A stretch of DNA of 64,000 bases, taken from positions 10,958,844 through 11,022,843 of the forward strand of contig CM082588.2 in assembly GCA_040954595.2 (NCBI GenBank), written 5' to 3'. The translations under genes and the position numbers were made by a program. Each line of letters opens with the position of its first letter. Positions within the stretch are counted from its first letter, which is position 1. This document shows, in pieces, positions 5,236-64,000 of the stretch. The notes below the pieces were generated by a model that saw only the letters and a list, made by a program, of their open reading frames with translations, searched no databases and was not told the DNA's origin. The DNA is from Balanoglossus misakiensis (taxonomy: Eukaryota; Animalia; Hemichordata).

Positions 5236-7057
5236 AAAAATGACAAATTATCGACTTTGCAAAATCTCACAATTTCGTCGATTTTTGAAAAAAATCATGG
5301 GTGAAAATCATCAAAAAATGACAAATTTTCGACTTTGCAAAATCTCAACATTTCGTCGATTTTTGAAAAAAAATCATGGGTGAAAATCATCAAAAAATGA
5401 CAAATTTTCGTCTTTGCAAAATCTTAAAATTTCGTCGATTTTTGAAACAAATCATGGGTGAAAATCATCAAAAAATGACACATTTTCGACTTTGCAAAAT
5501 CTAAAAATTTCGTCGATTTTTGAAAAATAATATGAGTGAAAATCATCAAAAAATGGCAAATTTTCGACTTTGCAAAATCTCAAAATTTCGTCCATTTAAA
5601 AAAAAAAAACATGGGGGAAAATCATCAAAAAATGACAAATTTTCGACTTTGCAAAATCTCAAAATTTCGTCGATTTTTGAAAAAAAATCATGGGTGAAAA
5701 TCATCAAAAAATGACAAATTTTCGTCTTTGCAAAATCTCAAAATTTCGTCCATTTTAAAAAAAAAACATGGGGCAAAATCATCAAAAAATGACAAATTTT
5801 CGACTTTGCAAAATCTCAAAATTTCGTCGATTTTTGAAAAAAAATCATGGGTGAAAATCATCAAAAAATGACAAATTTTCGTCTTTGCAAAATCTCAAAA
5901 TTTCGTCCATTTTTGAATAAAAATCATGGGTAAAAATCATCAAAAATGACAAATTTTCGTCTTTGCTATATCTCAAAATTTCGTCGGTTTTTGAAAAATA
6001 ATATGGGTGAAAATCATCAAAAAATGACAAATTTTCGACTTTGCAAAATCTTAAAATTTCGTCGATTTTTGAAAAAAATCATGGGTGAAAATCATCAAAA
6101 AATGACAAATTTTCGACTTTGCAAAATCTCAAAATTTCGTCAATATTTGAAAAATTCATGGGTAAAAATCATCAAAAAATGACAAATTTTCGTCTTTGCT
6201 AAATCTCAAAATTTCGTCGGTTTTTGAAAAATAATATGGGTGAAAATCATCAAAAAATGACAAATTTTCGACTTTGCAAAATCTCAAAATTTCGTCCATT
6301 TTTGAAAAAAAATCATGGGTAAAAATCATCAAAAAATGACAAATTTTCGTCTTTGCAAAATCTCAAAATTTCGTCCATTTTAAAAAAAAAACATGGGGGA
6401 AAATCATCAAAAAATGACAAATTTTCGACTTTGCAAAATCTCAAAATTTCGTCGATTTTTGAAAAAAAATCATGGGTGAAAATCATCAAAAAATGACAAA
6501 TTTTCGTCTTTGCAAAATCTCAAAATTTCGTCCATTTTTGAATAAAAATCATGGGTAAAAATAATCAAAAATGACAAATTTTCGTCTTTGCAAAATCTCA
6601 AATTTTCGTCGATTTTTAAAAAAAAAATGGGAGAAAATCATCAAAAAATGACAAATTTTCGACTTTGCAAAATCTCAACATTTCGTCGATTTTTGAAAAA
6701 AATCATGGGTGAAAATCATCAAAAAATTACAAATTTTCGACTTTGCAAAATCTCAACATTTCGTCGATTTTTGAAAAAAATCATGGGTGAAAATCATCAA
6801 AAAATGACAAATTTTCGACTTTGCAAAGTCTCAACATTTTGTCGATTTTTGAAAAAATCATGGGTGAAAATCATCAAAAAATGACAAAATTTTCGACTTT
6901 GCAAAATCTCAAAATTTCGTCGATTTTGAAAAAAATCATAGGTTCGTCGATTTTTTAAAAAAAAACATGGGTGAAAATCATCAAAAAATGACAAATTTTT
7001 GACTTTGCAAAATCTCACAATTTCGTCGATTTTCGTCCATTTAAAAAAAAAATCATG
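5236..7057. repeat. 78-bp satellite, block 2
   Basis: Same monomer resumes in register after the HINE and ends at CATG immediately before the Ngaro element. Confidence 0.97.
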
Positions 7058-7221
7058 TAGGTAACATTGCGATCAACGGCATAATGTTACCCAATTAAGC
7101 AACTCGAAAAGGGGCGCCCTCAACCTCAAACGAGCCTCAAAAATCCCATAATCCATCACTCACGGCCACTTCAAGGGTTCGGAGCGTGTCCTGCAGTGCT
7201 CGCTCTCTCTGCCTCAATTTC
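7058..7221 (+). repeat. Ngaro split direct repeat A1 (copies at 11967-12130, 17624-17787, 23281-23444)
   Basis: TAGGTAACATTGCGATCAACGG...CTCTGCCTCAATTTC occurs four times. It begins with an inverted repeat GGTAACATT (7060-7068)/AATGTTACC (7083-7091). Confidence 0.93.
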
Positions 7222-7238
7222 AATTTCTCACCGTTATT

Positions 7239-10200
7239 ATGGAGAACGCTGAACAACAGCTGCTGGATTTGGGAATAGAGCCCAGTCCAGTCGCCAAAAA
7301 GGGACCTGCAACTCGCAGTAAGACTACGACAAGAGCATCGACCGGTCGAAAAGTTCGCGTGGTCCCCCCCACCAAACTTTCCAAAGTACCAATGGCGTCA
7401 GCTCGTTCGAAAGGCGGGAAATGTAGCAAACCTGTCAAGGAAGAAGACACTTCATCTGACGGGGAAGATGTGAGGTCAGAGAAAGAGAAGTTGCAGGCGG
7501 AGATAGCGAGACTGCAGGAGCAATCTGAAGTAGACAATTTAAGAAAACAACTAAAAGAAATGAAACTGGAGAAGGAACGACGCAGCCCGCCAGCCGCTTC
7601 GAGCGGAAGTCCCAGAAGTCACGACCTGAGTCAACTCACGCTACCCGATCTCAAGAGGATGGCGAAAGAAGACTCACAATTGCAGTGGTCGTTACCATCA
7701 GGCAGTCCGTGGCTACCAGCGACAGGGGCCGCTGGCGGCGGTGAAGACCTCCAACCGAACCAACTCCTGGCACAGTCCGGTTTATACACAGCAGCGCAGA
7801 GCAAAGCAGGTAACGTACCAATGAAATCGATGCGGTTCAACACCAGAACCGATCGTGTGCGACAGCACGTCCTATGGCCGCACATGTTCGTCAGGGCTCG
7901 GACATTCTCGGGCGCCCCACCAAAATTCGATGATATGTCAATGGCGGAATTTGTGGAAGGTAATCTCGCGATAGTGCAACTTCCTACTTTGAGTGACACA
8001 GAGAAACAGCAGCGATTACAACACTTACAGTCGCTTATGAAAGACGCCAATTTGTTCCCCTGGGACGCCATCTTGAAGTTCGAGGGCGCGCTCCTCTCTG
8101 ACATGGAGTCAGGACTCAGAACATGGGCAAATGACACCGCAGATCTGAGAGAGCTATATTTGCTGCCGCGTATCGGCAAGATCAGACGGGATAAAACAGC
8201 GGACAAATCCAAAAAGAAGGATCAGATTAATGTATGTTTCAAATACCAAAGTAACAAGTGCGAGAAGGAGGATTGCGCATTCAAACACATATGTGAAGCC
8301 TGCATGAAGTTGCGTAACAACCTGGCCAAGCATCCCAAGATTGCCTGCCCCTGGAAGGATAAGGCCTTTAGAGAGCAAGAGAGCAACAAGTTGACCGATA
8401 GTTCTGGCAAAGCAGAGGTAGATAAGTCTAAACAAGACTCTCATGACTGTGACAGCAATTTAATTCCTAAATTGAACCATAGAGTCAAAAGTGCAGGCAC
8501 GGAGTGTAATATCAATGACTTTTATACATTGATGGGCATCACAGATCAGGCAGTGCACAAGTGTGATCGCTCTGTACAAACTGACATGGAGATTGATATT
8601 TCAAGAAGCCTGTCAATGTGCAACCCGGAGGTTTTGCGGGATGCTATTGTTAACCCTAGTAGTATTTCTGAACCAGTGCTTTCGATTGACGAGCCAGTAA
8701 CATGTACCATTGCCAATGTTGCCTCTGAACACACAGGTTGTTTTGATACCTCTGTTAGCAGGGATAATGTTGACAAATACCTTTGTAAAACTCATACAGT
8801 TGATTTGATAGAACCTGATATTGAGACTGATCTTGACAAGCAAATCCCTATTGAATCACTAGCCCATACCGTCGGTGATACCACTGAATTTGCATGTGAG
8901 ATTAGCGCTCATGGTTCCTCTGACGGTATGATCAGTGATGACCACGATGTCTTTGTTAGTGATATGTTTACTGTGGAAAATGTTCCAAATATGGGGCCTC
9001 CCAACCCCACCCTTGTTGATCACAGTGTTCCAGACACTTATCCACTGGGCAATGATATGCAGTATTCTGAGTTATCAGATACTCCCGTGGGCGGGGATGT
9101 CTGTCCCCCGTCGTCATGGCCACAAGCGTCACCCCTTGATTTAACAGAAGTTATAACCGTTCATGACATAGTTGTTGAATCAGGTTTACCAAATTCTCAA
9201 TTTTGCAGAATACCCGTTTCATCAAATCTTCAAATCCCAATTTGGCGAGCCGAATTGCAGCAATATGATGACAAAATCATCTGCGATTACCTACAATATG
9301 GTTGGCCCGTCTACTATACAGCCTCAGAATTGCCATACTCTACAGTGAAAAACCACCCATCAGCTATAAATTACTCGGCGCATGTCGACAACTGGATCAT
9401 TAACGAAGTCGCAGCCGGGGCTACAGCGGGTCCGTTCTTAACTAACCCCCTTGCCACACCACTCAGTACTTCCCCCATTCAGACTGTCGAAAAAAAAGAT
9501 AGTGTTAATCGGCGTATAGTCTTTGATCTTAGTTCCCCAATCCACCATTCAGTAAATGACGGTATCCCCAAAGGGGAATATCTTGGGGAGAGTTTTCAGC
9601 TTCAATATCCTTCCATTGATGATTTCACTGCAATGATGACCCGTAAGGGCAGGGGATGCCTCCTATTTAAGCGCGATTTAAGCAGAGCTTATCGGCAAAT
9701 ACCAGTCGATCCAGCGGACTACCATTTGCTGGGCTACACGTGGCGTAATTTATTGTTCTTTGACCTTACATTGCCATTTGGCTTGCGAACCGCAGCGCTA
9801 GCCTGCCAGCGCACCACTAATGCTGTTTCTATTCCACGAAAGGGTATGACTGTGTTAATTACCTTGACGACTTCGGTGGTGCAGAGACCTCCAACAAAGC
9901 CCACAAGGCATTTGCGGAGCTAGGTGACACGCTGGATAGACTGGGTTTGCAAGAAGCCAAACACAAAGCGGTGCCCCCGTCATCAATCATGACTTTTCTT
10001 GGAATCCAGTTGAACTCCCTTACAATGACTATGGAAGTTACTCCTGACCGGCTTAATGAAATAGAGCAAGAGCTGGGTGTATGGGTCACTAAAACAAAAG
10101 CAACTAAGCGCGAGCTGCAATCACTCATAGGCAAGCTTTCCTTTATTGCCAAATGTGTCAAGCCTGGTAGGCTATTCCTGGCGAGAATGCTAGATGTGTT

Positions 10201-10798
10201 GCGTACCGTCACCCGCAATCACTACCATCTAAACAGTGATTTCAAGGCAGATCTACGGTGGTGGATTAATTTCATTAGGGTTTATAATGGGGTGTCTCTC
10301 ATTAAAGAGTCAGGTTGGTGCCCGCCAGATGAAATATTTTCTTCGGATGCATGCCCAACAGGGGGAGGGGGGCTTTGCGACAACGAGTATTTCCACGTGG
10401 AGTTCCCTGACTTTGTAAAGGTTGGGGACCCTCACATTAATGCCCTCGAATTACTCACTATTACTATAGCGGCAAAAATTTGGGGTGATAGATGGTCTGG
10501 AAAGAAAATACAGGTCTCTTGCGACAACCAGGCAACAGTTTGGGTCATTAATACCGGTAGAGCTAGGGATAAACTAATGCTGTCTTGCTTGAGGGAATTA
10601 TGGCTGGTAGCAGCGATTCACGAGTTTGAGCTACGTGCTGTGCACATCGCAGGCACCGAGAACCGGCTGGCTGATGCGCTCAGTCGCTGGCATCTTGACC
10701 CAAGTTATGAGCAACTCTTCAAATCATCTGTTAATATTTCTCAAATGACCGAGCACCCAGTCGCCGAGGATGACATTCGCTTTCTCAATGAGTGGTGA
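7239..10798 (+). pseudogene. Ngaro unit 1 gag-RT-RNase H fusion ORF, frameshifted
   Basis: Gag-like region (VLWPH motif; Cys/His finger CFKYQSNKCEKEDCAFKHICEAC...HPKIAC) runs in frame into RT (KRDLSRAYRQI, LPFGLR). Relative to units 2/3, a 7-bp deletion near 9830 shifts the frame just before YLDD and a 6-bp in-frame deletion lies near 10228. RNase H motifs SDAC, HINALEL, CDNQ and NRLADALSR lie in ORF 9947-10798. Confidence 0.9.
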
Positions 10799-11816
10799 CT
10801 GATTTTATTTTTATTTCAGATCACTGCCAAACTATCCAAGCCTTAGACGCTCAAATCGCTATCTCAATGAGGTCAGCATTAGCGGAAGGAACTCGTCGGA
10901 ATTTGTCGTCACAGTTGAAGAGTTACTTCCTGTTTTGTCAGTTTTTCAATTTTACTCCTGTTCCAGCATCTGTTCTTACAGTGTGTAGATTTATCCAGTT
11001 TCTTGCAAGATCAGTAACTGCTACTGGCACCATTCAGAATTATTTGTACGCAATTCGTACCTTGCATAGAATCCATGGCTTCACGCCATTGGCCGCTGAT
11101 CAGTATGTTGTCAAATTACTTTTGAAATGTCTTTCCCGTAGCACTTTCCAGCCAGTGAGGCAGAAATTACCCATCACCCCCCAGTTGTTGCTACAGTTTT
11201 TCGGGCTTCTAGATGTGGCTGTTCCATTCGATGTTACTTTGTGGGCATGCCTTTTGATAGGGTTTTTCTCCTTTTTTCGCAAGTCAAATCTTGTTCCGAA
11301 GTCTGCAACCGACTTTGATCCGGCTAAACACCTCTGTAGGGGTAAAGTCATTTCCTCAGATTCTGGCCTTATAATCGGCGTGACTTGGTCAAAAACCATT
11401 CAGTTTCGCGAACGCTGTTTGACTATTCCACTTGCCCGCATTCCAGGTTCGGTGTTGTGCCCTTTACAGGCATACAATCACATGTGTGAGATCATCCCAG
11501 CCCCACCCTCTAGCCCAGGATTCATTTTCCCAAATGTGGCAAATTGGTCCCCTTGACCCATTCAGGGCTGGTGAAAAGTATCAAATGTTTAGTTCAGAGG
11601 GCAGGCTTTCCTGCTGACATGTACTCGGGTCACAGCCTCCGTCGTGGGGGTGCAACCTTTGCATTCGAAAGTGGGGTCCCTGGGGAGCTTATCAAACTCC
11701 AAGGGGATTGGCAATCCAGCGCGTATCTCCGTTATCTTAACATTCCATTTCAGACTCGTTATCTGGTGTCCTTTCAAATGGGTCAGCATATTAAAGACAT
11801 CTCCGCGTCACACTGA
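10792..11816 (+). pseudogene. Ngaro unit 1 tyrosine recombinase, frameshifted
   Basis: Same as the intact 341-codon YR frame of units 2/3 but with a net 1-bp deletion near 11520-11530, splitting it into ORFs 10792-11556 and 11544-11816. Confidence 0.9.
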
Positions 11817-11860
11817 TTTTACTGTGGCACTAGCAGAGAGGCGGACCGGGTTTGGCAGTG

Positions 11861-11966
11861 GTTGGGCCTGCAAGAGCCCCCAGTTCACGTAAATAAATAA
11901 TGGCTCTTGCCTTCAGCTGCCAAACCTGTGTCCTTGGTTTGTGTGTTAGAGAGATCTCAAGTAATT
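11861..11966 (+). repeat. Ngaro split direct repeat B1 (copies at 17518-17623, 23175-23280, 23593-23698), containing a poly(A) signal
   Basis: GTTGGGCCTGCAAGAGC...GAGAGATCTCAAGTAATT occurs four times. AATAAA at 11892-11897 is followed by a GT-rich tract. Confidence 0.92.
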
Positions 11967-12147
11967 TAGGTAACATTGCGATCAACGGCATAATGTTACC
12001 CAATTAAGCAACTCGAAAAGGGGCGCCCTCAACCTCAAACGAGCCTCAAAAATCCCATAATCCATCACTCACGGCCACTTCAAGGGTTCGGAGCGTGTCC
12101 TGCAGTGCACGCTCTCTCTGCCTCAATTTCAATTTCTCACCATTATT

Positions 12148-14064
12148 ATGGAGAACGCTGAACAACAGCTGCTGGATTTGGGAATAGAGCCCAGTCCAGT
12201 CGCCAAAAAGGGACCTGCAACTCGCAGTAAGACTACGACAAGAGCATCGACCGGTCGAAAAGTTCGCGTGGTCCCCCCCACCAAACTTTCCAAAGTACCA
12301 ATGGCGTCAGCTCGTTCGAAAGGCGGGAAATGTAGCAAACCTGTCAAGGAAGAAGACACTTCATCTGACGGGGAAGATGTGAGGTCAGAGAAAGAGAAGT
12401 TGCAGGCGGAGATAGCGAGACTGCAGGAGCAATCTGAAGTAGACAATTTAAGAAAACAACTAAAAGAAATGAAACTGGAGAAGGAACGACGCAGCCCGCC
12501 AGCCGCTTCGAGCGGAAGTCCCAGAAGTCACGACCTGAGTCAACTCACGCTACCCGATCTCAAGAGGATGGCGAAAGAAGACTCACAATTGCAGTGGTCG
12601 TTACCATCAGGCAGTCCGTGGCTACCAGCGACAGGGGCCGCTGGCGGCGGTGAAGACCTCCAACCGAACCAACTCCTGGCACAGTCCGGTTTATACACAG
12701 CAGCGCAGAGCAAAGCAGGTAACGTACCAATGAAATCGATGCGCTTCAACACCAGAACCGATCGTGTGCGACAGCACGTCCTATGGCCGCACATGTTCGT
12801 CAGGGCTCGGACATTCTCGGGCGCCCCACCAAAATTCGATGATATGTCAATGGCGGAATTTGTGGAAGGTAATCTCGCGATAGTGCAACTTCCTACTTTG
12901 AGTGACACAGAGAAACAGCAGCGATTACAACACTTACAGTCGCTTATGAAAGACGCCAATTTGTTTCCCTGGGACGCCATCTTGAAGTTCGAGGGCGCGC
13001 TCCTCTCTGACATGGAGTCAGGACTCAGAACATGGGCAAATGACACCGCAGATCTGAGAGAGCTATATTTGCTGCCGCGTATCGGCGAGATCAGACGGGA
13101 TAAAACAGCGGACAAATCCAAAAAGAAGGATCAGATTAATGTATGTTTCAAATACCAAAGTAACAAGTGCGAGAAGGAGGATTGCGCATTCAAACACATA
13201 TGTGAAGCCTGCATGAAGTTGCGTAACAACCTGGCCAAGCATCCCAAGATTGCCAGCCCCTGGAAGGATAAGGCCTTTAGAGAGCAAGAGAGCAACAAGT
13301 TGACCGATAGTTCTGGCAAAGCAGAGGTAGATAAGTCTAAACAAGACTCTCATGACTGTGACAGCAATTTAATTCCTAAATTGAACCATAGAGTCAAAAG
13401 TGCAGGCACGGAGTGTAATATCAATGACTTTTATACATTGATGGGCATCACAGATCAGGCAGTGCACAAGTGTGATCGCTCTGTACAAACTGACATGGAG
13501 ATTGATATTTCAAGAAGCCTGTCAATGTGCAACCCGGAGGTTTTGCGGGATGCTATTGTTAACCCTAGTAGTATTTCTGAACCAGTGCTTTCGATTGACG
13601 AGCCAGTAACATGTACCATTGCCAATGTTGCCTCTGAATATACAGGTTGTTTTGATACCTCTGTTAGCAGGGATAATGTTGACAAATACCTTTGTAAAAC
13701 TCATACAGTTGATTTGATAGAACCTGATATTGAGACTGATCTTGACAAGCAAATCCCTATTGAATCACTAGCCCATACCGTCGGTGATACCACTGAATTT
13801 GCATGTGAGATTAGCGCTCATGGTTCATCTGACGGTATGATCAGTGATGACCACGATGTCTTTGTTAGTGATATGTTTACTGTGGAAAATGTTCCAAATA
13901 TGGGGCCTCCCAACCCCACCCTTGTTGATCACAGTGTTCCAGACACTTATCCACTGGGCAATGATATGCAGTATTCTGAGTTATCAGATACTCCCGTGGG
14001 CGGGGATGTCTGTCCCCCGTCGTCATGGCCACAAGGGTCACCCCTTGATTTAAAGCAGAGGTAG
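12148..14064 (+). CDS. Ngaro unit 2 Gag-like protein plus linker (truncated by a 734-bp duplication frameshift)
   Basis: 638-aa ORF, near-identical to the unit 1 N-terminus. It ends in KQR* right after the duplication junction at 14051/14052. Confidence 0.85.
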   Translation: MENAEQQLLDLGIEPSPVAKKGPATRSKTTTRASTGRKVRVVPPTKLSKVPMASARSKGGKCSKPVKEEDTSSDGEDVRSEKEKLQAEIARLQEQSEVDNLRKQLKEMKLEKERRSPPAASSGSPRSHDLSQLTLPDLKRMAKEDSQLQWSLPSGSPWLPATGAAGGGEDLQPNQLLAQSGLYTAAQSKAGNVPMKSMRFNTRTDRVRQHVLWPHMFVRARTFSGAPPKFDDMSMAEFVEGNLAIVQLPTLSDTEKQQRLQHLQSLMKDANLFPWDAILKFEGALLSDMESGLRTWANDTADLRELYLLPRIGEIRRDKTADKSKKKDQINVCFKYQSNKCEKEDCAFKHICEACMKLRNNLAKHPKIASPWKDKAFREQESNKLTDSSGKAEVDKSKQDSHDCDSNLIPKLNHRVKSAGTECNINDFYTLMGITDQAVHKCDRSVQTDMEIDISRSLSMCNPEVLRDAIVNPSSISEPVLSIDEPVTCTIANVASEYTGCFDTSVSRDNVDKYLCKTHTVDLIEPDIETDLDKQIPIESLAHTVGDTTEFACEISAHGSSDGMISDDHDVFVSDMFTVENVPNMGPPNPTLVDHSVPDTYPLGNDMQYSELSDTPVGGDVCPPSSWPQGSPLDLKQR

Positions 14065-14785
14065 ATAAGTCTAAACAAGACTCTCATGACTGTGACAGCA
14101 ATTTAATTCCTAAATTGAACCATAGAGTCAAAAGTGCAGGTACGGAGTGTAATATCAATGACTTTTATACATTGATGGGCATCACAGATCAGGCAGTGCA
14201 CAAGTGTGATCGCTCTGTACAAACTGACATGGAGATTGATATTTCAAGAAGCCTGTCAATGTGCAACCCGGAGGTTTTGCGGGATGCTATTGTTAACCCT
14301 AGTAGTATTTCTGAACCAGTGCTTTCGATTGACGAGCCAGTAACATGTACCATTGCCAATGTTGCCTCTGAACACACAGGTTGTTTTGATACCTCTGTTA
14401 GCAGGGATAATGTTGACAAATACCTTTGTAAAACTCATACAGTTGATTTGATAGAACCTGATATTGAGACTGATCTTGACAAGCAAATCCCTATTGAATC
14501 ACTAGCCCATACCGTCGGTGATACCACTGAATTTGCATGTGAGATTAGCGCTCATGGTTCATCTGACGGTATGATCAGTGATGACCACGATGTCTTTGTT
14601 AGTGACATGTTTACTGTGGAAAATGTTCCAAATATGGGGCCTCCCAACCCCACCCTTGTTGATCACAGTGTTCCAGACACTTATCCACTGGGCAATGATA
14701 TGCAGTATTCTGAGTTATCAGATACTCCCGTGGGCGGGGATGTCTGTCCCCCGTCGTCATGGCCACAAGCGTCACCCCCTGATTT
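13318..14785 (+). repeat. 734-bp internal tandem duplication in the gag-pol linker (unit 2; also 18975-20442 in unit 3)
   Basis: AAAGCAGAGGTAGATAAG...GATTT is repeated at 13318 and 14052. The ORF-track offset 13455 vs 14189 is 734. Confidence 0.95.
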
Positions 14786-16454
14786 AACAGAAGTTATAAC
14801 CGTTCATGACATAGTTGTTGAATCAGGTTTACCAAATTCTCAATTTTGCAGAATACCCGTTTCATCAAATCTTCAAATCCCAATTTGGCGAGCCGAATTG
14901 CAGCAATATGATGACAAAATCATCTGCGATTACCTACAATATGGTTGGCCCGTCTACTATACAGCCTCAGAATTGCCATACTCTACAGTGAAAAACCACC
15001 CATCAGCTATAAATTACTCGGCGCATGTCGACAACTGGATCATTAACGAAGTCGCAGCCGGGGCTACAGCGGGTCCGTTCTTAACTAACCCCCTTGCCAC
15101 ACCACTCAGTACTTCCCCCATTCAGACTGTCGAAAAAAAAGATAGTGTTAATCGGCGTATAGTCTTTGATCTTAGTTCCCCAATCCACCATTCAGTAAAT
15201 GACGGTATCCCCAAAGGGGAATATCTTGGGGAGAGTTTTCAGCTTCAATATCCTTCCATTGATGATTTCACTGCAATGATGACCCGTAAGGGCAGGGGAT
15301 GCCTCCTATTTAAGCGCGATTTAAGCAGAGCTTATCGGCAAATACCAGTCGATCCAGCGGACTACCATTTGCTGGGCTACACGTGGCGTAATTTATTGTT
15401 CTTTGACCTTACATTGCCATTTGGCTTGCGAACCGCAGCGCTAGCCTGCCAGCGCACCACTAATGCGGTTTCTTATATCTATTCCACGAAAGGGTATGAC
15501 TGTGTTAATTACCTTGACGACTTCGGTGGTGCAGAGACCTCCAACAAAGCCCACAAGGCATTTGCGGAGCTAGGTGACACGCTGGATAGACTGGGTTTGC
15601 AAGAAGCCAAACACAAAGCGGTGCCCCCGTCATCAATCATGACTTTTCTTGGAATCCAGTTGAACTCCCTTACAATGACTATGGAAGTTACTCCTGACCG
15701 GCTTAATGAAATAGAGCAAGAGCTGGGTGTATGGGTCACTAAAACAAAAGCAACTAAGCGCGAGCTGCAATCACTCATAGGCAAGCTTTCCTTTATTGCC
15801 AAATGTGTCAAGCCTGGTAGGCTATTCCTGGCGAGAATGCTAGATGTGTTGCGTACCGTCACCCGCAATCACTACCATATCTATCTAAACAGTGATTTCA
15901 AGGCAGATCTACGGTGGTGGATTAATTTCATTAGGGTTTATAATGGGGTGTCTCTCATTAAAGAGTCAGGTTGGTGCCCGCCAGATGAAATATTTTCTTC
16001 GGATGCATGCCCAACAGGGGGAGGGGGGCTTTGCGACAACGAGTATTTCCACGTGGAGTTCCCTGACTTTGTAAAGGTTGGGGACCCTCACATTAATGCC
16101 CTCGAATTACTCACTATTACTATAGCGGCAAAAATTTGGGGTGATAGATGGTCTGGAAAGAAAATACAGGTCTCTTGCGACAACCAGGCAACAGTTTGGG
16201 TCATTAATACCGGTAGAGCTAGGGATAAACTAATGCTGTCTTGCTTGAGGGAATTATGGCTGGTAGCAGCGATTCACGAGTTTGAGCTACGTGCTGTGCA
16301 CATCGCAGGCACCGAGAACCGGCTGGCTGATGCGCTCAGTCGCTGGCATCTTGACCCAAGTTATGAGCAACTCTTCAAATCATCTGTTAATATTTCTCAA
16401 ATGACCGAGCACCCAGTCGCCGAGGATGACATTCGCTTTCTCAATGAGTGGTGA
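14115..16454 (+). CDS. Ngaro unit 2 reverse transcriptase-RNase H (open frame; native start lost)
   Basis: Intact RT (DLSRAYRQI, LPFGL, YLDDF) and RNase H (SDAC, ELL, CDN, ADALSR) motifs. The track start is TTG, not ATG. Confidence 0.9.
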   Translation: MNHRVKSAGTECNINDFYTLMGITDQAVHKCDRSVQTDMEIDISRSLSMCNPEVLRDAIVNPSSISEPVLSIDEPVTCTIANVASEHTGCFDTSVSRDNVDKYLCKTHTVDLIEPDIETDLDKQIPIESLAHTVGDTTEFACEISAHGSSDGMISDDHDVFVSDMFTVENVPNMGPPNPTLVDHSVPDTYPLGNDMQYSELSDTPVGGDVCPPSSWPQASPPDLTEVITVHDIVVESGLPNSQFCRIPVSSNLQIPIWRAELQQYDDKIICDYLQYGWPVYYTASELPYSTVKNHPSAINYSAHVDNWIINEVAAGATAGPFLTNPLATPLSTSPIQTVEKKDSVNRRIVFDLSSPIHHSVNDGIPKGEYLGESFQLQYPSIDDFTAMMTRKGRGCLLFKRDLSRAYRQIPVDPADYHLLGYTWRNLLFFDLTLPFGLRTAALACQRTTNAVSYIYSTKGYDCVNYLDDFGGAETSNKAHKAFAELGDTLDRLGLQEAKHKAVPPSSIMTFLGIQLNSLTMTMEVTPDRLNEIEQELGVWVTKTKATKRELQSLIGKLSFIAKCVKPGRLFLARMLDVLRTVTRNHYHIYLNSDFKADLRWWINFIRVYNGVSLIKESGWCPPDEIFSSDACPTGGGGLCDNEYFHVEFPDFVKVGDPHINALELLTITIAAKIWGDRWSGKKIQVSCDNQATVWVINTGRARDKLMLSCLRELWLVAAIHEFELRAVHIAGTENRLADALSRWHLDPSYEQLFKSSVNISQMTEHPVAEDDIRFLNEW

Positions 16455-17473
16455 CTGATTTTATTTTTATTTCAGATCACTGCCAAACTATCCAAGCCTT
16501 AGACGCTCAAATCGCTATCTCAATGAGGTCAGCATTAGCGGAAGGAACTCGTCGGAATTTGTCGTCACAGTTGAAGAGTTACTTCCTGTTTTGTCAGTTT
16601 TTCAATTTTACTCCTGTTCCAGCATCTGTTCTTACAGTGTGTAGATTTATCCAGTTTCTTGCAAGATCAGTAACTGCTACTGGCACCATTCAGAATTATT
16701 TGTACGCAATTCGTACCTTGCATAGAATCCATGGCTTCACGCCATTGGCCGCTGATCAGTATGTTGTCAAATTACTTTTGAAATGTCTTTCCCGTAGCAC
16801 TTTCCAGCCAGTGAGGCAGAAATTACCCATCACCCCCCAGTTGTTGCTACAGTTTTTCGGGCTTCTAGATGTGGCTGTTCCATTCGATGTTACTTTGTGG
16901 GCATGCCTTTTGATAGGGTTTTTCTCCTTTTTTCGCAAGTCAAATCTTGTTCCGAAGTCTGCAACCGACTTTGATCCGGCTAAACACCTCTGTAGGGGTA
17001 AAGTCATTTCCTCAGATTCTGGCCTTATAATCGGCGTGACTTGGTCAAAAACCATTCAGTTTCGCGAACGCTGTTTGACTATTCCACTTGCCCGCATTCC
17101 AGGTTCGGTGTTGTGCCCTTTACAGGCATACAATCACATGTGTGAGATCATCCCAGCCCCACCCTCTAGCCCAGCATTTGTTTTTCCCAAATGTGGCAAA
17201 TTGGTCCCCTTGACCCATTCAGGGCTGGTGAAAAGTATCAAATGTTTAGTTCAGAGGGCAGGCTTTCCTGCTGACATGTACTCGGGTCACAGCCTCCGTC
17301 GTGGGGGTGCAACCTTTGCATTCGAAAGTGGGGTCCCTGGGGAGCTTATCAAACTCCAAGGGGATTGGCAATCCAGCGCGTATCTCCGTTATCTTAACAT
17401 TCCATTTCAGACTCGTTATCTGGTGTCCTTTCAAATGGGTCAGCATATTAAAGACATCTCCGCGTCACACTGA
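16448..17473 (+). CDS. Ngaro unit 2 tyrosine recombinase (intact)
   Basis: Catalytic set R (FFRKSNL), K (WSKT), H-x-x-R (GHSLRRG), W (GDWQS), Y (AYLRY). Preceded by a strong splice acceptor at 16475. Confidence 0.94.
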   Translation: MVTDFIFISDHCQTIQALDAQIAISMRSALAEGTRRNLSSQLKSYFLFCQFFNFTPVPASVLTVCRFIQFLARSVTATGTIQNYLYAIRTLHRIHGFTPLAADQYVVKLLLKCLSRSTFQPVRQKLPITPQLLLQFFGLLDVAVPFDVTLWACLLIGFFSFFRKSNLVPKSATDFDPAKHLCRGKVISSDSGLIIGVTWSKTIQFRERCLTIPLARIPGSVLCPLQAYNHMCEIIPAPPSSPAFVFPKCGKLVPLTHSGLVKSIKCLVQRAGFPADMYSGHSLRRGGATFAFESGVPGELIKLQGDWQSSAYLRYLNIPFQTRYLVSFQMGQHIKDISASH

Positions 17474-17804
17474 TTTTACTGTGGCACTAGCAGAGAGGCG
17501 GACCGGGTTTGGCAGTGGTTGGGCCTGCAAGAGCCCCCAGTTCACGTAAATAAATAATGGCTCTTGCCTTCAGCTGCCAAACCTGTGTCCTTGGTTTGTG
17601 TGTTAGAGAGATCTCAAGTAATTTAGGTAACATTGCGATCAACGGCATAATGTTACCCAATTAAGCAACTCGAAAAGGGGCGCCCTCAACCTCAAACGAG
17701 CCTCAAAAATCCCATAATCCATCACTCACGGCCACTTCAAGGGTTCGGAGCGTGTCCTGCAGTGCACGCTCTCTCTGCCTCAATTTCAATTTCTCACCGT
17801 TATT

Positions 17805-19721
17805 ATGGAGAATGCTGAACAACAGCTGCTGGATTTGGGAATAGAGCCCAGTCCAGTCGCCAAAAAGGGACCTGCAACCCGCAGTAAGACTACGACAAGA
17901 GCATCGACCGGTCGAAAAGTTCGCGTGGTCCCCCCCACCAAACTTTCCAAAGTACCAATGGCGTCAGCTCGTTCGAAAGGCGGGAAATGTAGCAAACCTG
18001 TCAAGGAAGAAGACACTTCATCTGACGGGGAAGATGTGAGGTCAGAGAAAGAGAAGTTGCAGGCGGAGATAGCGAGACTGCAGGAGCAATCTGAAGTAGA
18101 CAATTTAAGAAAACAACTAAAAGAAATGAAACTGGAGAAGGAACGACGCAGCCCGCCAGCTGCTTCGAGCGGAAGTCCCAGAAGTCACGACCTGAGTCAA
18201 CTCACGCTACCCGATCTCAAGAGGATGGCGAAAGAAGACTCACAATTGCAGTGGTCGTTACCATCAGGCAGTCCGTGGCTACCAGCGACAGGGGCCGCTG
18301 GCGGCGGTGAAGACCTCCAACCGAACCAACTCCTGGCACAGTCCGGTTTATACACAGCAGCGCAGAGCAAAGCAGGTAACGTACCAATGAAATCGATGCG
18401 GTTCAACACCAGAACCGATCGTGTGCGACAGCACGTCCTATGGCCGCACATGTTCGTCAGGGCTCGGACATTCTCGGGCGCCCCACCAAAATTCGATGAT
18501 ATGTCAATGGCGGAATTTGTGGAAGGTAATCTCGCGATAGTGCAACTTCCTACTTTGAGTGACACAGAGAAACAGCAGCGATTACAATACTTACAGTCGC
18601 TTATGAAAGACGCCAATTTGTTCCCCTGGGACGCCATCTTGAAGTTCGAGGGCGCGCTCCTCTCTGACATGGAGTCAGGACTCAGAACATGGGCAAATGA
18701 CACCGCAGATCTGAGAGAGCTATATTTGCTGCCGCGTATCGGCGAGATCAGACGGGATAAAACAGCGGACAAATCCAAAAAGAAGGATCAGATTAATGTA
18801 TGTTTCAAATACCAAAGTAACAAGTGCGAGAAGGAGGATTGCGCATTCAAACACATATGTGAAGCCTGCATGAAGTTGCGTAACAACCTGGCCAAGCATC
18901 CCAAGATTGCCAGCCCCTGGAAGGATAAGGCCTTTAGAGAGCAAGAGAGCAACAAGTTGACCGATAGTTCTGGCAAAGCAGAGGTAGATAAGTCTAAACA
19001 AGACTCTCATGACTGTGACAGCAATTTAATTCCTAAATTGAACCATAGAGTCAAAAGTGCAGGCACGGAGTGTAATATCAATGACTTTTATACATTGATG
19101 GGCATCACAGATCAGGCAGTGCACAAGTGTGATCGCTCTGTACAAACTGACATGGAGATTGATATTTCAAGAAGCCTGTCAATGTGCAACCCGGAGGTTT
19201 TGCGGGATGCTATTGTTAACCCTAGTAGTATTTCTGAACCAGTGCTTTCGATTGACGAGCCAGTAACATGTACCATTGCCAATGTTGCCTCTGAACACAC
19301 AGGTTGTTTTGATACCTCTGTTAGCAGGGATAATGTTGACAAATACCTTTGTAAAACTCATACAGTTGATTTGATAGAACCTGATATTGAGACTGATCTT
19401 GACAAGCAAATCCCTATTGAATCACTAGCCCATACCGTCGGTGATACCACTGAATTTGCATGTGAGATTAGCGCTCATGGTTCATCTGACGGTATGATCA
19501 GTGATGACCACGATGTCTTTGTTAGTGATATGTTTACTGTGGAAAATGTTCCAAATATGGGGCCTCCCAACCCCACCCTTGTTGATCACAGTGTTCCAGA
19601 CACTTATCCACTGGGCAATGATATGCAGTATTCTGAGTTATCAGATACTCCCGTGGGCGGGGATGTCTGTCCCCCGTCGTCATGGCCACAAGCGTCACCC
19701 CTTGATTTAAAGCAGAGGTAG
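17805..19721 (+). CDS. Ngaro unit 3 Gag-like protein plus linker (truncated by duplication frameshift)
   Basis: 638-aa ORF essentially identical to unit 2. Confidence 0.85.
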   Translation: MENAEQQLLDLGIEPSPVAKKGPATRSKTTTRASTGRKVRVVPPTKLSKVPMASARSKGGKCSKPVKEEDTSSDGEDVRSEKEKLQAEIARLQEQSEVDNLRKQLKEMKLEKERRSPPAASSGSPRSHDLSQLTLPDLKRMAKEDSQLQWSLPSGSPWLPATGAAGGGEDLQPNQLLAQSGLYTAAQSKAGNVPMKSMRFNTRTDRVRQHVLWPHMFVRARTFSGAPPKFDDMSMAEFVEGNLAIVQLPTLSDTEKQQRLQYLQSLMKDANLFPWDAILKFEGALLSDMESGLRTWANDTADLRELYLLPRIGEIRRDKTADKSKKKDQINVCFKYQSNKCEKEDCAFKHICEACMKLRNNLAKHPKIASPWKDKAFREQESNKLTDSSGKAEVDKSKQDSHDCDSNLIPKLNHRVKSAGTECNINDFYTLMGITDQAVHKCDRSVQTDMEIDISRSLSMCNPEVLRDAIVNPSSISEPVLSIDEPVTCTIANVASEHTGCFDTSVSRDNVDKYLCKTHTVDLIEPDIETDLDKQIPIESLAHTVGDTTEFACEISAHGSSDGMISDDHDVFVSDMFTVENVPNMGPPNPTLVDHSVPDTYPLGNDMQYSELSDTPVGGDVCPPSSWPQASPLDLKQR

Positions 19722-19771
19722 ATAAGTCTAAACAAGACTCTCATGACTGTGACAGCAATTTAATTCCTAAA

Positions 19772-22111
19772 TTGAACCATAGAGTCAAAAGTGCAGGCAC
19801 GGAGTGTAATATCAATGACTTTTATACATTGATGGGCATCACAGATCAGGCAGTGCACAAGTGTGATCGCTCTGTACAAACTGACATGGAGATTGATATT
19901 TCAAGAAGCCTGTCAATGTGCAACCCGGAGGTTTTGCGGGATGCTAGTGTTAACCCTAGTAGTATTTCTGAACCAGTGCTTTCGATTGACGAGCCAGTAA
20001 CATGTACCATTGCCAATGTTGCCTCTGAACACACAGGTTGTTTTGATACCTCTGTTAGCAGGGATAATGTTGACAAATACCTTTGTAAAACTCATACAGT
20101 TGATTTGATAGAACCTGATATTGAGACTGATCTTGACAAGCAAATCCCTATTGAATCACTAGCCCATACCGTCGGTGATACCACTGAATTTGCATGTGAG
20201 ATTAGCGCTCATGGTTCATCTGACGGTATGATCAGTGATGACCACGATGTCTTTGTTAGTGATATGTTTACTGTGGAAAATGTTCCAAATATGGGGCCTC
20301 CCAACCCCACCCTTGTTGATCACAGTGTTCCAGACACTTATCCACTGGGCAATGATATGCAGTATTCTGAGTTATCAGATACTCCCGTGGGCGGGGATGT
20401 CTGTCCCCCGTCGTCATGGCCACAAGCGTCACCCCCTGATTTAACAGAAGTTATAACCGTTCATGACATAGTTGTTGAATCAGGTTTACCAAATTCTCAA
20501 TTTTGCAGAATACCCGTTTCATCAAATCTTCAAATCCCAATTTGGCGAGCCGAATTGCAGCAATATGATGACAAAATCATCTGCGATTACCTACAATATG
20601 GTTGGCCCGTCTACTATACAGCCTCAGAATTGCCATACTCTACAGTGAAAAACCACCCATCAGCTATAAATTACTCGGCGCATGTCGACAACTGGATCAT
20701 TAACGAAGTCGCAGCCGGGGCTACAGCGGGTCCGTTCTTAACTAACCCCCTTGCCACACCACTCAGTACTTCCCCCATTCAGACTGTCGAAAAAAAAGAT
20801 AGTGTTAATCGGCGTATAGTCTTTGATCTTAGTTCCCCAATCCACCATTCAGTAAATGACGGTATCCCCAAAGGGGAATATCTTGGGGAGAGTTTTCAGC
20901 TTCAATATCCTTCCATTGATGATTTCACTGCAATGATGACCCGTAAGGGCAGGGGATGCCTCCTATTTAAGCGCGATTTAAGCAGAGCTTATCGGCAAAT
21001 ACCAGTCGATCCAGCGGACTACCATTTGCTGGGCTACACGTGGCGTAATTTATTGTTCTTTGACCTTACATTGCCATTTGGCTTGCGAACCGCAGCGCTA
21101 GCCTGCCAGCGCACCACTAATGCGGTTTCTTATATCTATTCCACGAAAGGGTATGACTGTGTTAATTACCTTGACGACTTCGGTGGTGCAGAGACCTCCA
21201 ACAAAGCCCACAAGGCATTTGCGGAGCTAGGTGACACGCTGGATAGACTGGGTTTGCAAGAAGCCAAACACAAAGCGGTGCCCCCGTCATCAATCATGAC
21301 TTTTCTTGGAATCCAGTTGAACTCCCTTACAATGACTATGGAAGTTACTCCTGACCGGCTTAATGAAATAGAGCAAGAGCTGGGTGTATGGGTCACTAAA
21401 ACAAAAGCAACTAAGCGCGAGCTGCAATCACTCATAGGCAAGCTTTCCTTTATTGCCAAATGTGTCAAGCCTGGTAGGCTATTCCTGGCGAGAATGCTAG
21501 ATGTGTTGCGTACCGTCACCCGCAATCACTACCATATCTATCTAAACAGTGATTTCAAGGCAGATCTACGGTGGTGGATTAATTTCATTAGGGTTTATAA
21601 TGGGGTGTCTCTCATTAAAGAGTCAGGTTGGTGCCCGCCAGATGAAATATTTTCTTCGGATGCATGCCCAACAGGGGGAGGGGGGCTTTGCGACAACGAG
21701 TATTTCCACGTGGAGTTCCCTGACTTTGTAAAGGTTGGGGACCCTCACATTAATGCCCTCGAATTACTCACTATTACTATAGCGGCAAAAATTTGGGGTG
21801 ATAGATGGTCTGGAAAGAAAATACAGGTCTCTTGCGACAACCAGGCAACAGTTTGGGTCATTAATACCGGTAGAGCTAGGGATAAACTAATGCTGTCTTG
21901 CTTGAGGGAATTATGGCTGGTAGCAGCGATTCACGAGTTTGAGCTACGTGCTGTGCACATCGCAGGCACCGAGAACCGGCTGGCTGATGCGCTCAGTCGC
22001 TGGCATCTTGACCCAAGTTATGAGCAACTCTTCAAATCATCTGTTAATATTTCTCAACTGACCGAGCACCCAGTCGCCGAGGATGACATTCGCTTTCTCA
22101 ATGAGTGGTGA
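19772..22111 (+). CDS. Ngaro unit 3 reverse transcriptase-RNase H
   Basis: 779-codon frame with YLDDF and RNase H motifs, near-identical to unit 2. Confidence 0.9.
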   Translation: MNHRVKSAGTECNINDFYTLMGITDQAVHKCDRSVQTDMEIDISRSLSMCNPEVLRDASVNPSSISEPVLSIDEPVTCTIANVASEHTGCFDTSVSRDNVDKYLCKTHTVDLIEPDIETDLDKQIPIESLAHTVGDTTEFACEISAHGSSDGMISDDHDVFVSDMFTVENVPNMGPPNPTLVDHSVPDTYPLGNDMQYSELSDTPVGGDVCPPSSWPQASPPDLTEVITVHDIVVESGLPNSQFCRIPVSSNLQIPIWRAELQQYDDKIICDYLQYGWPVYYTASELPYSTVKNHPSAINYSAHVDNWIINEVAAGATAGPFLTNPLATPLSTSPIQTVEKKDSVNRRIVFDLSSPIHHSVNDGIPKGEYLGESFQLQYPSIDDFTAMMTRKGRGCLLFKRDLSRAYRQIPVDPADYHLLGYTWRNLLFFDLTLPFGLRTAALACQRTTNAVSYIYSTKGYDCVNYLDDFGGAETSNKAHKAFAELGDTLDRLGLQEAKHKAVPPSSIMTFLGIQLNSLTMTMEVTPDRLNEIEQELGVWVTKTKATKRELQSLIGKLSFIAKCVKPGRLFLARMLDVLRTVTRNHYHIYLNSDFKADLRWWINFIRVYNGVSLIKESGWCPPDEIFSSDACPTGGGGLCDNEYFHVEFPDFVKVGDPHINALELLTITIAAKIWGDRWSGKKIQVSCDNQATVWVINTGRARDKLMLSCLRELWLVAAIHEFELRAVHIAGTENRLADALSRWHLDPSYEQLFKSSVNISQLTEHPVAEDDIRFLNEW

Positions 22112-23130
22112 CTGATTTTATTTTTATTTCAGATCACTGCCAAACTATCCAAGCCTTAGACGCTCAAATCGCTATCTCAATGAGGTCAGCATTAGCGGAA
22201 GGAACTCGTCGGAATTTGTCGTCACAGTTGAAGAGTTACTTCCTGTTTTGTCAGTTTTTCAATTTTACTCCTGTTCCAGCATCTGTTCTTACAGTGTGTA
22301 GATTTATCCAGTTTCTTGCAAGATCAGTAACTGCTACTGGCACCATTCAGAATTATTTGTACGCAATTCGTACCTTGCATAGAATCCATGGCTTCACGCC
22401 ATTGGCCGCTGATCAGTATGTTGTCAAATTACTTTTGAAATGTCTTTCCCGTAGCACTTTCCAGCCAGTGAGGCAGAAATTACCCATCACCCCCCAGTTG
22501 TTGCTACAGTTTTTCGGGCTTCTAGATGTGGCTGTTCCATTCGATGTTACTTTGTGGGCATGCCTTTTGATAGGGTTTTTCTCCTTTTTTCGCAAGTCAA
22601 ATCTTGTTCCGAAGTCTGCAACCGACTTTGATCCGGCTAAACACCTCTGTAGGGGTAAAGTCATTTCCTCAGATTCTGGCCTTATAATCGGCGTGACTTG
22701 GTCAAAAACCATTCAGTTTCGCGAACGCTGTTTGACTATTCCACTTGCCCACATTCCAGGTTCGGTGTTGTGCCCTTTACAGGCATACAATCACATGTGT
22801 GAGATCATCCCAGCCCCACCCTCTAGCCCAGCATTTGTTTTTCCCAAATGTGGCAAATTTGTCCCCTTGACCCATTCAGGGCTGGTGAAAAGTATCAAAT
22901 GTTTAGTTCAGAGGGCAGGCTTTCCTGCTGACATGTACTCAGGTCACAGCCTCCGTCGTGGGGGTGCAACCTTTGCATTCGAAAGTGGGGTCCCTGGGGA
23001 GCTTATCAAACTCCAAGGGGATTGGCAATCCAGCGCGTATCTCCGTTATCTTAACATTCCATTTCAGACTCGTTATCTGGTGTCCTTTCAAATGGGTCAG
23101 CATCTTAAAGACATCTCCGCGTCACACTGA
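22105..23130 (+). CDS. Ngaro unit 3 tyrosine recombinase (intact)
   Basis: 341-codon frame with R-K-HxxR-W-Y residues. Splice acceptor at 22132. Confidence 0.94.
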   Translation: MVTDFIFISDHCQTIQALDAQIAISMRSALAEGTRRNLSSQLKSYFLFCQFFNFTPVPASVLTVCRFIQFLARSVTATGTIQNYLYAIRTLHRIHGFTPLAADQYVVKLLLKCLSRSTFQPVRQKLPITPQLLLQFFGLLDVAVPFDVTLWACLLIGFFSFFRKSNLVPKSATDFDPAKHLCRGKVISSDSGLIIGVTWSKTIQFRERCLTIPLAHIPGSVLCPLQAYNHMCEIIPAPPSSPAFVFPKCGKFVPLTHSGLVKSIKCLVQRAGFPADMYSGHSLRRGGATFAFESGVPGELIKLQGDWQSSAYLRYLNIPFQTRYLVSFQMGQHLKDISASH

Positions 23131-23280
23131 TTTTACTGTGGCACTAGCAGAGAGGCGGACCGGGTTTGGCAGTGGTTGGGCCTGCAAGAGCCCCCAGTTC
23201 ACGTAAATAAATAATGGCTCTTGCCTTCAGCTGCCAAACCTGTGTCCTTGGTTTGTGTGTTAGAGAGATCTCAAGTAATT

Positions 23281-23698
23281 TAGGTAACATTGCGATCAAC
23301 GGCATAATGTTACCCAATTAAGCAACTCGAAAAGGGGCGCCCTCAACCTCAAACGAGCCTCAAAAATCCCATAATCCATCACTCACGACCACTTCAAGGG
23401 TTCTGAGCGTGTCCTGCAATGCTCGCTCTCTCTGCCTCAATTTCCCCACCCGCCCGCCCTCAACAAATAAGATGTGTATTTGCAGATTTACAGTGGTTCT
23501 CTGGTCAATACTGTACTTCACGATTGTAACCTTTTTCATCCATGTATTTTGCAATGGTCCTTTCATCATTGCGAGTTGTTATTCCCAGTTGTGTTGGGCC
23601 TGCAAGAGCACCCAGTTCACGTAAATAAATAATGGCTCTTGCCTTCAGCTGCCAAACCTGTGTCCTTGTTTTGTGTGTTAGAGAGATCTCAAATAATT
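23281..23698 (+). repeat. Ngaro 3' terminal module A2 (23281-23444), unique 148-bp spacer, B2 (23593-23698)
   Basis: A2 and B2 each differ from the internal A and B copies at a few positions. The spacer occurs only once in the array. Confidence 0.9.
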
Positions 23699-29590: not shown

Positions 29591-30904
29591 CTGTACGGAA
29601 GAAACAAAGGTGAAATTATAAGACTGTGGTTTCACGATCAGTGGTTGAATGTACATGATGGTGGAAACTATATCATCAAGGGGAAAACGCCAAACGAAAG
29701 GATTAATAGATTGGCATGTAGTTGCCACAAATCAGACGTGAGGGTCTCATCAGCGATCAGGTTTGCATTGAAAGTTTCAGAATGAAGAGTCTCTGGTAGT
29801 TGATGTTCAAATGAAATTACCAATTGTAATGTATCGAAGAATTCACACGGGTCACCAAAAACTTTGAAATGGGCGCAATGAGTGCTGTTAACTGGAGAAC
29901 AGTAGTACAAGCGTATTGTTGAAAATGAGACACGGCGGATGTTTGCGCCAATTGGCAAAACTTGTTCGTGTGTTGCGTCAGTTAACAGTTGCGAATGTGT
30001 GTACAGCTTTTTTGGGGGAAAACTGAACGACAGATTTTGTAATGTACGGAGAGCAGTGCATGGGCCGAGCTTTGCAGACGTAATTGTCTGGTTATGAATA
30101 TTCCAAAGAGAGCCAATTGGCGTACCGATATTTTGTTGACGTTGAACGAAACGACAGTGGGGTGGTAGGTCAAATGGTGGGGCTTTGAAATGTCCCGCGG
30201 TATTTGACCAATGGAGTTGGCTTTCACTGTAGATTAAGCACCCGTGAATTTTTCGTACACAGTGTGGCATAATGAACCAAAGCAAGGAAATAAAAAATAA
30301 AGTATAACTTACTGTGTGAGTGTGGTACTTGCGGTGAACTAGACTGTGTGGATATAGTCTGTGCGGCTTGTTGTTCTGGATGAAAAAGGTGGGAAAGTGT
30401 GGTACGATGACCGATGTGCGCTGGAAAGTTGAAAGCGACGCGATGTTGTAGTTTCAGGAGTCAGGGAGCGAATGCGGTGAGCTCGCAGAAGTGTATGAGT
30501 GGACTTTCCGAAGACGACGCGTGAAAAATTTAATAATTGACGGACACAATGGATTTGCACCAATAGTAATACACAGAAATTGCCGACAAAGACAGTTTCG
30601 CAAAGGAACACGTGTGTATTGTTTACAAATATGACGTAACCGCCAGCGTGCAGATGAAAACAGAACGTGTTTACATGTTCAAAGCCAAGGAAGTCGATTG
30701 CTCCAGGGTTCTGAAAAACATTTCCGGTTGTGCATGACCGACAGGATGTTTGTTCGTAATCTGTCAATGTGATGAGATGTGTACCACATGTTAGCAATAA
30801 AATGGTGCCGTTTTGGTGTATAGGGGGAGATACCGATTATGTAAATAAACTGGTAATGTGACAGGGCAGTTGTCATTGCAATGATGGACACAGTAATGTT
30901 GTTG

Positions 30905-63500: not shown

Positions 63501-64000
63501 GTTTGGTGGGGTCAACCTTTGCGTCAACATTAACCAGAGCACACAGTAACCAGGCCGTAGTGGACAGTGTTCTGCCCATTAATTTTGAGTGTTTGGTGGG
63601 GTCAACCTTTGCGTCAACATTAACCAGAGCACACAGTAACCAGGCCGTAGTGGACAGTGTTCTGCCCATTAATTTTGAGTGTTTGGTGGGGTCAACCTTT
63701 GCGTCAACATTAACCAGAGCACACAGTAACCAGGCCGTAGTGGACAGTGTTCTGCCCATTAATTTTGAGTGTTTGGTGGGGTCAACCTTTGCGTCAACAT
63801 TAACTAGGCCAGAGTGGCCAGTATCGTGCCCATTAATTTTGAGTGTTTGGTGGGGTCAACCTTTGCGTCAACATTAACTAGGCCAGAGTGGCCAGTATCG
63901 TGCCCATTAATTTTGAGTGTTTGGTGGGGTCAACCTTTGCGTCAACATTAACTAGGCCAGAGTGGCCAGTATCGTGCCCATTAATTTTGAGTGTTTGGTG
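60525..64000. repeat. 90-bp tandem satellite with 76-bp variant units (open at window end)
   Basis: TTAACCAGAGCACACAGTAACCAGGCCGTAGTGGACAGTGTTCTGCCCATTAATTTTGAGTGTTTGGTGGGGTCAACCTTTGCGTCAACA is repeated nearly perfectly. Shorter TTAACTAGGCCAGAGTGGCC units cluster at ~61071-61370 and ~63800-64000. Confidence 0.98.

Follow-up and report, generated by a model that had tools for sequence, protein, structure and literature searches.

How a tyrosine recombinase is translated when its reading frame has no start codon of its own is the question raised by a retrotransposon in a 64,000-nucleotide stretch of the Balanoglossus misakiensis genome (contig CM082588.2, positions 10,958,844 to 11,022,843; hereafter the window, in whose own numbering all positions are given). 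The element, which is Ngaro-like, forms a block at 7055-23698 that is embedded in a 78-bp satellite and lacks an obvious target duplication, and self-comparison resolves the block into three head-to-tail units that are ~99.5% alike. Each unit body codes on the forward strand, as do all features of the element described below, for Gag, a reverse transcriptase (RT) with RNase H, and the tyrosine recombinase (YR). The absence of an upstream ATG, pointed out in an earlier note on this DNA, is confirmed: the open track of the unit 2 recombinase begins with a GTG at 16448 and its first methionine is codon 26, which lies at the 17th codon past a candidate splice acceptor. It is likely that the recombinase is made by splicing from a phase-1 donor in gag to this phase-1 acceptor, which lies past the RT/RNase H stop.

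The predicted sites recur in all three units. The Gag leader that would form the first exon comprises 190 codons and one base (571 nt from the ATG) and occupies 7239-7809 in unit 1, 12148-12718 in unit 2 and 17805-18375 in unit 3. Each leader ends in ...AAAGCAG and is followed by the predicted phase-1 donor in codon 191 (7810-7815, 12719-12724 and 18376-18381, the unit 1 site being identical to the ranked site of unit 2). The RT/RNase H stop and the predicted acceptor occupy 10796-10819, 16452-16475 and 22109-22132, a segment that in unit 1 comprises the stop (10796-10798), a predicted branch point, a pyrimidine tract and the AG. The six splice coordinates given in the earlier note (GT at 7810, 12719 and 18376; AG ending at 10819, 16475 and 22132) are all correct, as are the phase and the joined frame of 522 residues in units 2 and 3, whose recombinase exons lie at 16476-17473, with a Cre-like fold, and at 22133-23130, where the frame is also open. 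In unit 1 the joined frame is 435 residues long, its recombinase exon (10820-11556) being cut short by a 1-bp loss near 11524. Splice-site scores were obtained with approximate matrices and by these the unit 2 acceptor, whose AG ends 21 nt past the stop and has a 25-nt AG-free zone, ranks first of 354 AGs. The donor, previously called strong, is better described as moderate: it carries C at +5 instead of the consensus G and ranks second of 308 GTs in unit 2, and first of the 31 that precede the Gag core. It does lie just ahead of that core, as had been claimed, since conservation among Gag homologues usually begins near residues 185-196. The predicted intron, 3,757 nt in unit 2 (12719-16475), holds the Gag core, the Cys/His region, a linker, RT and RNase H; it also holds a 734-bp tandem duplication (13318-14787 in unit 2, 18975-20444 in unit 3), and the joined frame is spared for this reason, again as proposed. 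Sites of equal score occur in the flanking DNA at ~0.3-0.6 per kb, so that the window sites alone could be due to chance, and the support for them comes from their position and phase in relatives.

YR homologues numbered 890 at E 1e-20 or better, and the 120 of these that were listed, with five cluster-mates, made a set of 125; subtraction of 10 joined models or their cluster-mates, and of 53 proteins with fewer than 22 residues before the anchor, left 62 in which the YR start could be compared. Given that many of the homologues look like single-frame calls that read through the DNA before the YR, a phase-1 acceptor should show in them as a residue pattern: pyrimidines followed by NYA G/NN would be read as a residue with T-rich codons, then S/T/P/A/L/I/V, then V/A/D/E/G. 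Of the 62 proteins, 61 carry this pattern at the YR start, against 36.0±3.4 in shuffles (maximum 49 in 5,000) and 29.5±3.8 inside the YR core, and it sits 17-28 residues before the anchor, in 36 of the 61 at -21 or -20. A strict form is found in 48 of 62 (14.6±3.1 in shuffles) and, with one protein per 60% identity cluster, in 30 of 39 (median pairwise identity 42%). The phase-0 pattern was found in 2 proteins and a looser phase-2 pattern in 27, these two counts being without a control. Five DNA loci of relatives (L001-L005) were also compared, and a phase-1 YAG is present at the YR start of all five (ranks 13/216, 1/169, 28/365, 1/290 and 2/166 among AGs), in four of them as the best AG nearby. 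The RT/RNase H stop lies 6-21 nt ahead of the AG in the window and in L001-L004. A dual role of this stop as the branch point was considered and rejected, as the spacing fits the window, L002 and L004 (17-21 nt to the AG) and does not fit L001 and L003 (6-8 nt).

It is conceivable that the recombinase starts internally, at its first methionine or the GTG, from a sub-genomic RNA or by reinitiation, and that the splice-like signals are by-products of composition or helix capping. A methionine is available 17 codons past the AG in the window, the background rate of similar splice scores is the one given above, and S, T, D and G residues are frequent ahead of helices. However, this is highly unlikely for two reasons: first, the position of the first methionine past the acceptor is not conserved, being codon 17, 53, 32, 59, 80 and 39 in the six DNA sequences; second, a start at this methionine would remove most of a conserved helix. 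This first YR helix (residues 5-18; block predicted local distance difference test score, pLDDT, 85-90) begins right past the acceptor and lies mostly ahead of the first methionine, and the leucine position in the -15 region is hydrophobic in 98% of the 62 rows. Furthermore, the segment before the AG shows no sequence conservation; residues with T-rich codons abound in it, and a stop often closes it.

According to the published model, ribosomes enter the YR by a programmed -1 frameshift at the end of RT/RNase H, as proposed for Ngaro by Poulter and Butler 2015 and quoted in the accessible part of PMC13003380. In agreement with it, both the window and L001 have the YR at -1 to RT. In L002, L003 and L004, however, the offset is +1 while the phase of the acceptor stays constant; the overlap of RT and YR is only 4 nt in the window, and a heptamer of the form X XXY YYZ is absent from the overlap in all five elements tested. 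Frameshifting would also leave unexplained why a T-rich tract and a YAG mark the YR start. On these sequence comparisons the frameshift model appears largely contradicted for this family, and the chance that it accounts for the recombinase is judged very slight.

The donor of the proposed splice can be followed in the four loci that contain gag. In all four, the GT that scores highest from the gag ATG up to the Gag core is in phase 1, for which the chance expectation is ~0.8% (hand arithmetic from phase-1 shares of 16/41, 12/53, 22/57 and 9/37 GTs), and the joined frames are open in L004 (459 residues) and L005 (535 residues). The earlier note had proposed phase conservation in relatives as a check, and phase 1 is found for the acceptor in 5/5 and for the best pre-core donor in 4/4. 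A word-index search with Gag returned no homologue, whereas the full HMMER search gave 751 matches, the best 150 of which were listed; 153 sequences were aligned, giving 141 usable rows. In 79 of these 141 listed homologues the residues G-K, the phase-1 reading of G/GT AAG, stand just before the Gag core; shuffles give 28.1±4.2, and the reverse order is seen in 33. Donor and acceptor thus appear to be kept in position and phase across the family, the position of the donor more loosely than that of the acceptor.

Public gene models contain the predicted product. The closest named protein among the matches listed, RefSeq XP_077986280.1 of the acorn worm Glandiceps talaboti (502 residues), is a fusion of a Gag leader to the YR that omits the Gag core; its leader is 44% identical to that of the window over 159 aligned residues, its YR is 72% identical, and the two are joined at the equivalent residue. 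Three amphioxus models, XP_078682292.1, XP_019616155.1 and XP_019639177.1, are built in the same way. A Gag profile from which these four models were left out matches their leaders over its first third (16.9-28.1 bits, against 7.7-9.6 for the best of 200 shuffles), and the leaders end before the Gag core; direct BLAST pairs between the amphioxus leaders and full Gag proteins are weak. In a cluster-mate of XP_019639177.1 (P0124), an acceptor-type F-T-G stretch stands exactly at the position where that model has its leader.

Several observations weigh against the Gag-leader splice. The splice is predicted from the sequence with approximate scores, the window donor has a non-consensus base at +5, and the residue patterns for acceptor and donor, while following the codon table, were fixed after the listings had been viewed. 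L003 has a higher-scoring nearby AG in phase 2, two loci are decayed, L001 and L003 both having leader stops and L001 a frame change between ATG and donor as well, and the distance from donor to the core anchors varies from 3 to 125 codons upstream. The G-K residues may reflect a basic motif of the protein, and a donor could also lie in S-G-[RK], a further conserved stretch closer to the core whose G is present in 74% of rows at -15. A fifth model tested, XP_066298120.1, has a leader without a match to the Gag profile (8 of 200 shuffles score as high), and seven others (P0012, P0122, P0125, P0141, P0144, P0189 and P0209) join RT or RNase H to the YR.

These observations raise the possibility that the same acceptor is used with another donor, in RT/RNase H, in the linker or in a non-coding 5' exon, which would yield a Gag-RT-YR polyprotein or a different leader. 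This is the live alternative, to which the seven RT/RNase H-YR models, the moderate gag donor, its differing position among relatives and a higher-scoring GT at ~14140 in unit 2 all lend weight. Nevertheless, it is considered unlikely: the GT at ~14140 is a one-copy variant, present in one of five copies of the site and replaced by GC in the other four, the best pre-core donor is in phase 1 in the window and in all four relatives, and the model of the closest relative, XP_077986280.1, has the Gag-leader join. As gene finders attach varied upstream pieces to the YR, automated models are no proof of the donor used.

An acceptor of its own ahead of RT was also sought. In the window no separate phase-1 RT acceptor was found, the two best AGs before RT being in phase 2 and the best in phase 1 scoring 2.3; among the relatives, phase-1 candidates with open frames are present in L003 (4.9) and L004 (4.0), and none was found in L001 or L005. 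In L004 and L005, gag and RT share a frame that is interrupted by a single stop codon (1708-1710 and 2171-2173, respectively), which may be passed by read-through or by a separate RT acceptor, the phase-1 candidate of L004 being at 1786.

The exon downstream of the acceptor encodes a complete recombinase. Its predicted fold is Cre-like over the full length (pLDDT 93; Z score 25.0, root-mean-square deviation 3.2 and 292 residues aligned), and the Pfam Phage_integrase match is weak and below the cut-off (E 0.0059). Likeness to Cre (PDB 5u91, 1crx) extends across the two-domain fold of the exon and to the R-K-H-R-W-Y catalytic set, here R153, K191, H271, R274, W297 and Y305 (numbered from 16478), and the first helix aligns with Cre from residue 25-28; the window protein differs from Cre in its ~20% identity and in the predicted 190-residue Gag extension before that helix. 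Neither the Gag core nor the Cys/His region is part of the leader. Its description as basic and coiled-coil is borne out in part: there is a basic stretch (14 K/R in 66 residues) and a long predicted helix at residues 76-114, with a short one at 135-144, but the heptad count is weak (best 4/10 hydrophobic). In a single-sequence fold prediction the long helix has pLDDT 85-89, and the model is unreliable elsewhere (mean 42.7).

Given these parts, one promoter would give rise to two RNAs. The unspliced RNA would serve as genome and as message for a single Gag-RT-RNase H polyprotein, and the spliced RNA, 3.0-3.8 kb shorter, as message for a 522-residue protein of ~58 kDa in which the first 190 residues of Gag precede the whole Cre-like recombinase across one exact junction. 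Splicing would then set the dose of the recombinase and supply its start codon. The earlier note's claim of two products from one transcript stands as to the leader-recombinase, which the relatives and gene models favour, and falters on the other product, because an intact Gag-RT-RNase H frame is present in none of the three units, a further point against the scheme. In unit 1 the 894-residue Gag-RT frame (7239-9923) departs from the RT frame near 9827, and the rest of RT-RNase H, with YLDD, lies at 9821-10798; in units 2 and 3 the frame is cut at 638 residues by the 734-bp duplication that the two have in common, and unit 1 has private deletions of 7, 6 and 1 bp. A homologue of 1,121 residues (P0127) has Gag, RT and RNase H in one single frame, which shows the fused frame to be a natural plan in the family. 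The plan therefore holds for the family and is beyond the reach of these three copies as assembled; with all three RT-defective, recombinase could come from units 2 and 3 and RT would be needed from another copy.

It is tentatively suggested that the long helix of the leader pairs with Gag and so delivers the recombinase to the particle. Alternatively, the basic leader may be a tag for nuclear import or nucleic-acid binding, or may merely supply a start codon. It is likewise doubtful, though possible, that every animal Ngaro-like element makes its recombinase as a spliced Gag-leader fusion whose coiled-coil helix co-assembles with full-length Gag. If so, an integrating enzyme would be packaged without polyprotein, protease or frameshift, and the frameshift model in print would be replaced.

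The assignment of the element is based on its repeats and domains. Ngaro elements are tyrosine-recombinase retrotransposons of the order DIRS (PMC9210276, PMC4157794, PMC3783388 and PMC8547959, in their accessible parts), with an amphioxus example in the part available of PMC2632668 and its supplementary file 10. The window element fits a Ngaro-like definition: its split direct repeats are arranged with A at the 5' end and B, A, B at the 3' end, it has gag, RT-RNase H and YR in that order on one strand (RVT_1 E 1.2e-7, Gag homologues and the Cre-like YR) with the YR start slightly overlapping the RT/RNase H end, and no methyltransferase follows RNase H, the frame ending 40 residues past the last RNase H motif (DALSR, 761 of 801) and the element frames giving no Pfam match to a methyltransferase domain. 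No sequence basis was found for frameshift expression of the YR, a review proposal and not an established Ngaro criterion. Assignment as DIRS1-like was rejected, as the termini are direct repeats, the 3' end has no inverted match to the element and the methyltransferase domain is absent. No named reference Ngaro sequence was found among the homologue matches, the closest named relatives being unclassified RefSeq/GenBank models. The element departs from the superfamily in having Gag and RT-RNase H in one frame where, in the descriptions available, three open reading frames (ORFs) are usual, in its three head-to-tail units, and in the expression predicted for its YR, by splicing to the Gag leader and not by the frameshift suggested in the review that PMC13003380 quotes.

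The repeats of the block follow the order A-body-B-A-body-B-A-body-B-A-spacer-B. The four 167-bp copies of A (7055-7221, 11964-12130, 17621-17787 and 23278-23444) were found by blastn self-comparison, the first and last being 97.6% alike, and the four copies of B, ~111 bp with AATAAA, lie at 11856-11966, 17513-17623, 23170-23280 and 23586-23698. A unique 141-bp spacer (23445-23585) separates the last A from the last B, whereas descriptions of Ngaro elements, as far as accessible, give B1-A2-B2 without a spacer; the same sequence follows A in the sequencing runs X1 and X2. The units are joined at B/A, which could reflect integration of a circle into the element's own B/A junction or unequal crossing-over. 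The start of each A (7059-7066 in the first), at the extreme edge of the element, also reads like a second donor, AG/GTAAC, with the same core as the gag donor.

Splicing is a familiar means of expressing a 3' gene in retroelements. Retroviral and gypsy env and foamy virus pol are expressed by sub-genomic splicing, and the env of Rous sarcoma virus begins with several codons of Gag; as proposed here, a single splice from a 5' donor gives access to the 3' gene, and the unspliced RNA is the genome. The product here would differ in being the integrating enzyme, and in sharing 190 residues of Gag with a long helix where those proteins share none or few. In the Arabidopsis Ty1/Copia element EVD, a conserved alternative splice likewise gives two messages from one unit and sets protein ratios, but its spliced shGAG RNA makes Gag alone (PMC5580714, accessible part), whereas the splice predicted here would remove the Gag core together with RT and yield a leader-recombinase fusion. 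In the literature searched, no spliced Gag-YR is reported, this covering the accessible text of PMC7192593, PMC9341512, PMC8547959, PMC9210276, PMC6681497, PMC4157794, PMC3783388, PMC3266345, PMC5890265, PMC2632668 and bioRxiv 2022.06.16.496473; in the available part of PMC13003380 the longest ORF of a newt element ends in the YR. For the expression and delivery of recombinases in the order DIRS, the literature reached, in its accessible parts, offers only the frameshift guess. Spliced expression of the recombinase may be new, splicing in retrotransposons as such being already known. A conserved Gag-to-YR splice, if true, would explain the missing start codon and define the true N-terminus to use in biochemical work and reporter constructs; many gene models named 'integrase/recombinase xerD homolog' in animal annotations would be products of this transposon, and host control of splicing could throttle insertion apart from reverse transcription.

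Read data were searched for the element. Four RNA runs (X21, X3, X4 and X8) gave no element reads at ~1 in 100 of each run and apparently come from another organism. Runs X1 and X2, one sample of unlabelled kind, look like DNA, with a flat depth of 3.7 and contigs of up to 38.7 kb, and the sole features they show on the element are its head-to-tail joint and a skip of 734 nt. An intron was rejected as the cause of this skip, which equals the duplication, with 231 letters that fit either side. The species label of X1 and X2 also covers single-cell RNA runs from many studies, with no element reads, and is probably mismatched to the organism. A scan of viral contigs found no relatives among 137 stretches.

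Further features were noted in the relatives and elsewhere in the window. An extra ORF follows the YR in L004 (4694-5269), L003 (7864-8565) and L001 (7878-8669), with none in the window element; that of L004 looks by eye like an SGNH hydrolase, as described for amphibian Ngaro elements. L004 (JBEVXV010000574.1), L005 (JAAETJ010000066.1) and protein P0112 are animal-type Ngaro sequences in records of bacterial or archaeal metagenome-assembled genomes, probably through host contamination, and L005 has a second RNase H end and YR copy upstream of gag (1-551) and is probably tandem too. On the reverse strand of the window, Helitron-like frames extend over 31355-46500, with a PIF1 helicase and endonuclease at 31355-34603 and Rep, DUF6570 and a herpes-tegument-type deubiquitinase domain at 41917-46500, and a run of open frames of 160-260 codons with strong GC skew lies at 27137-30836 (two tested, no Pfam match). 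At 60526-64000, 90-bp and 74-bp tandem arrays are interleaved, 94-97% alike.

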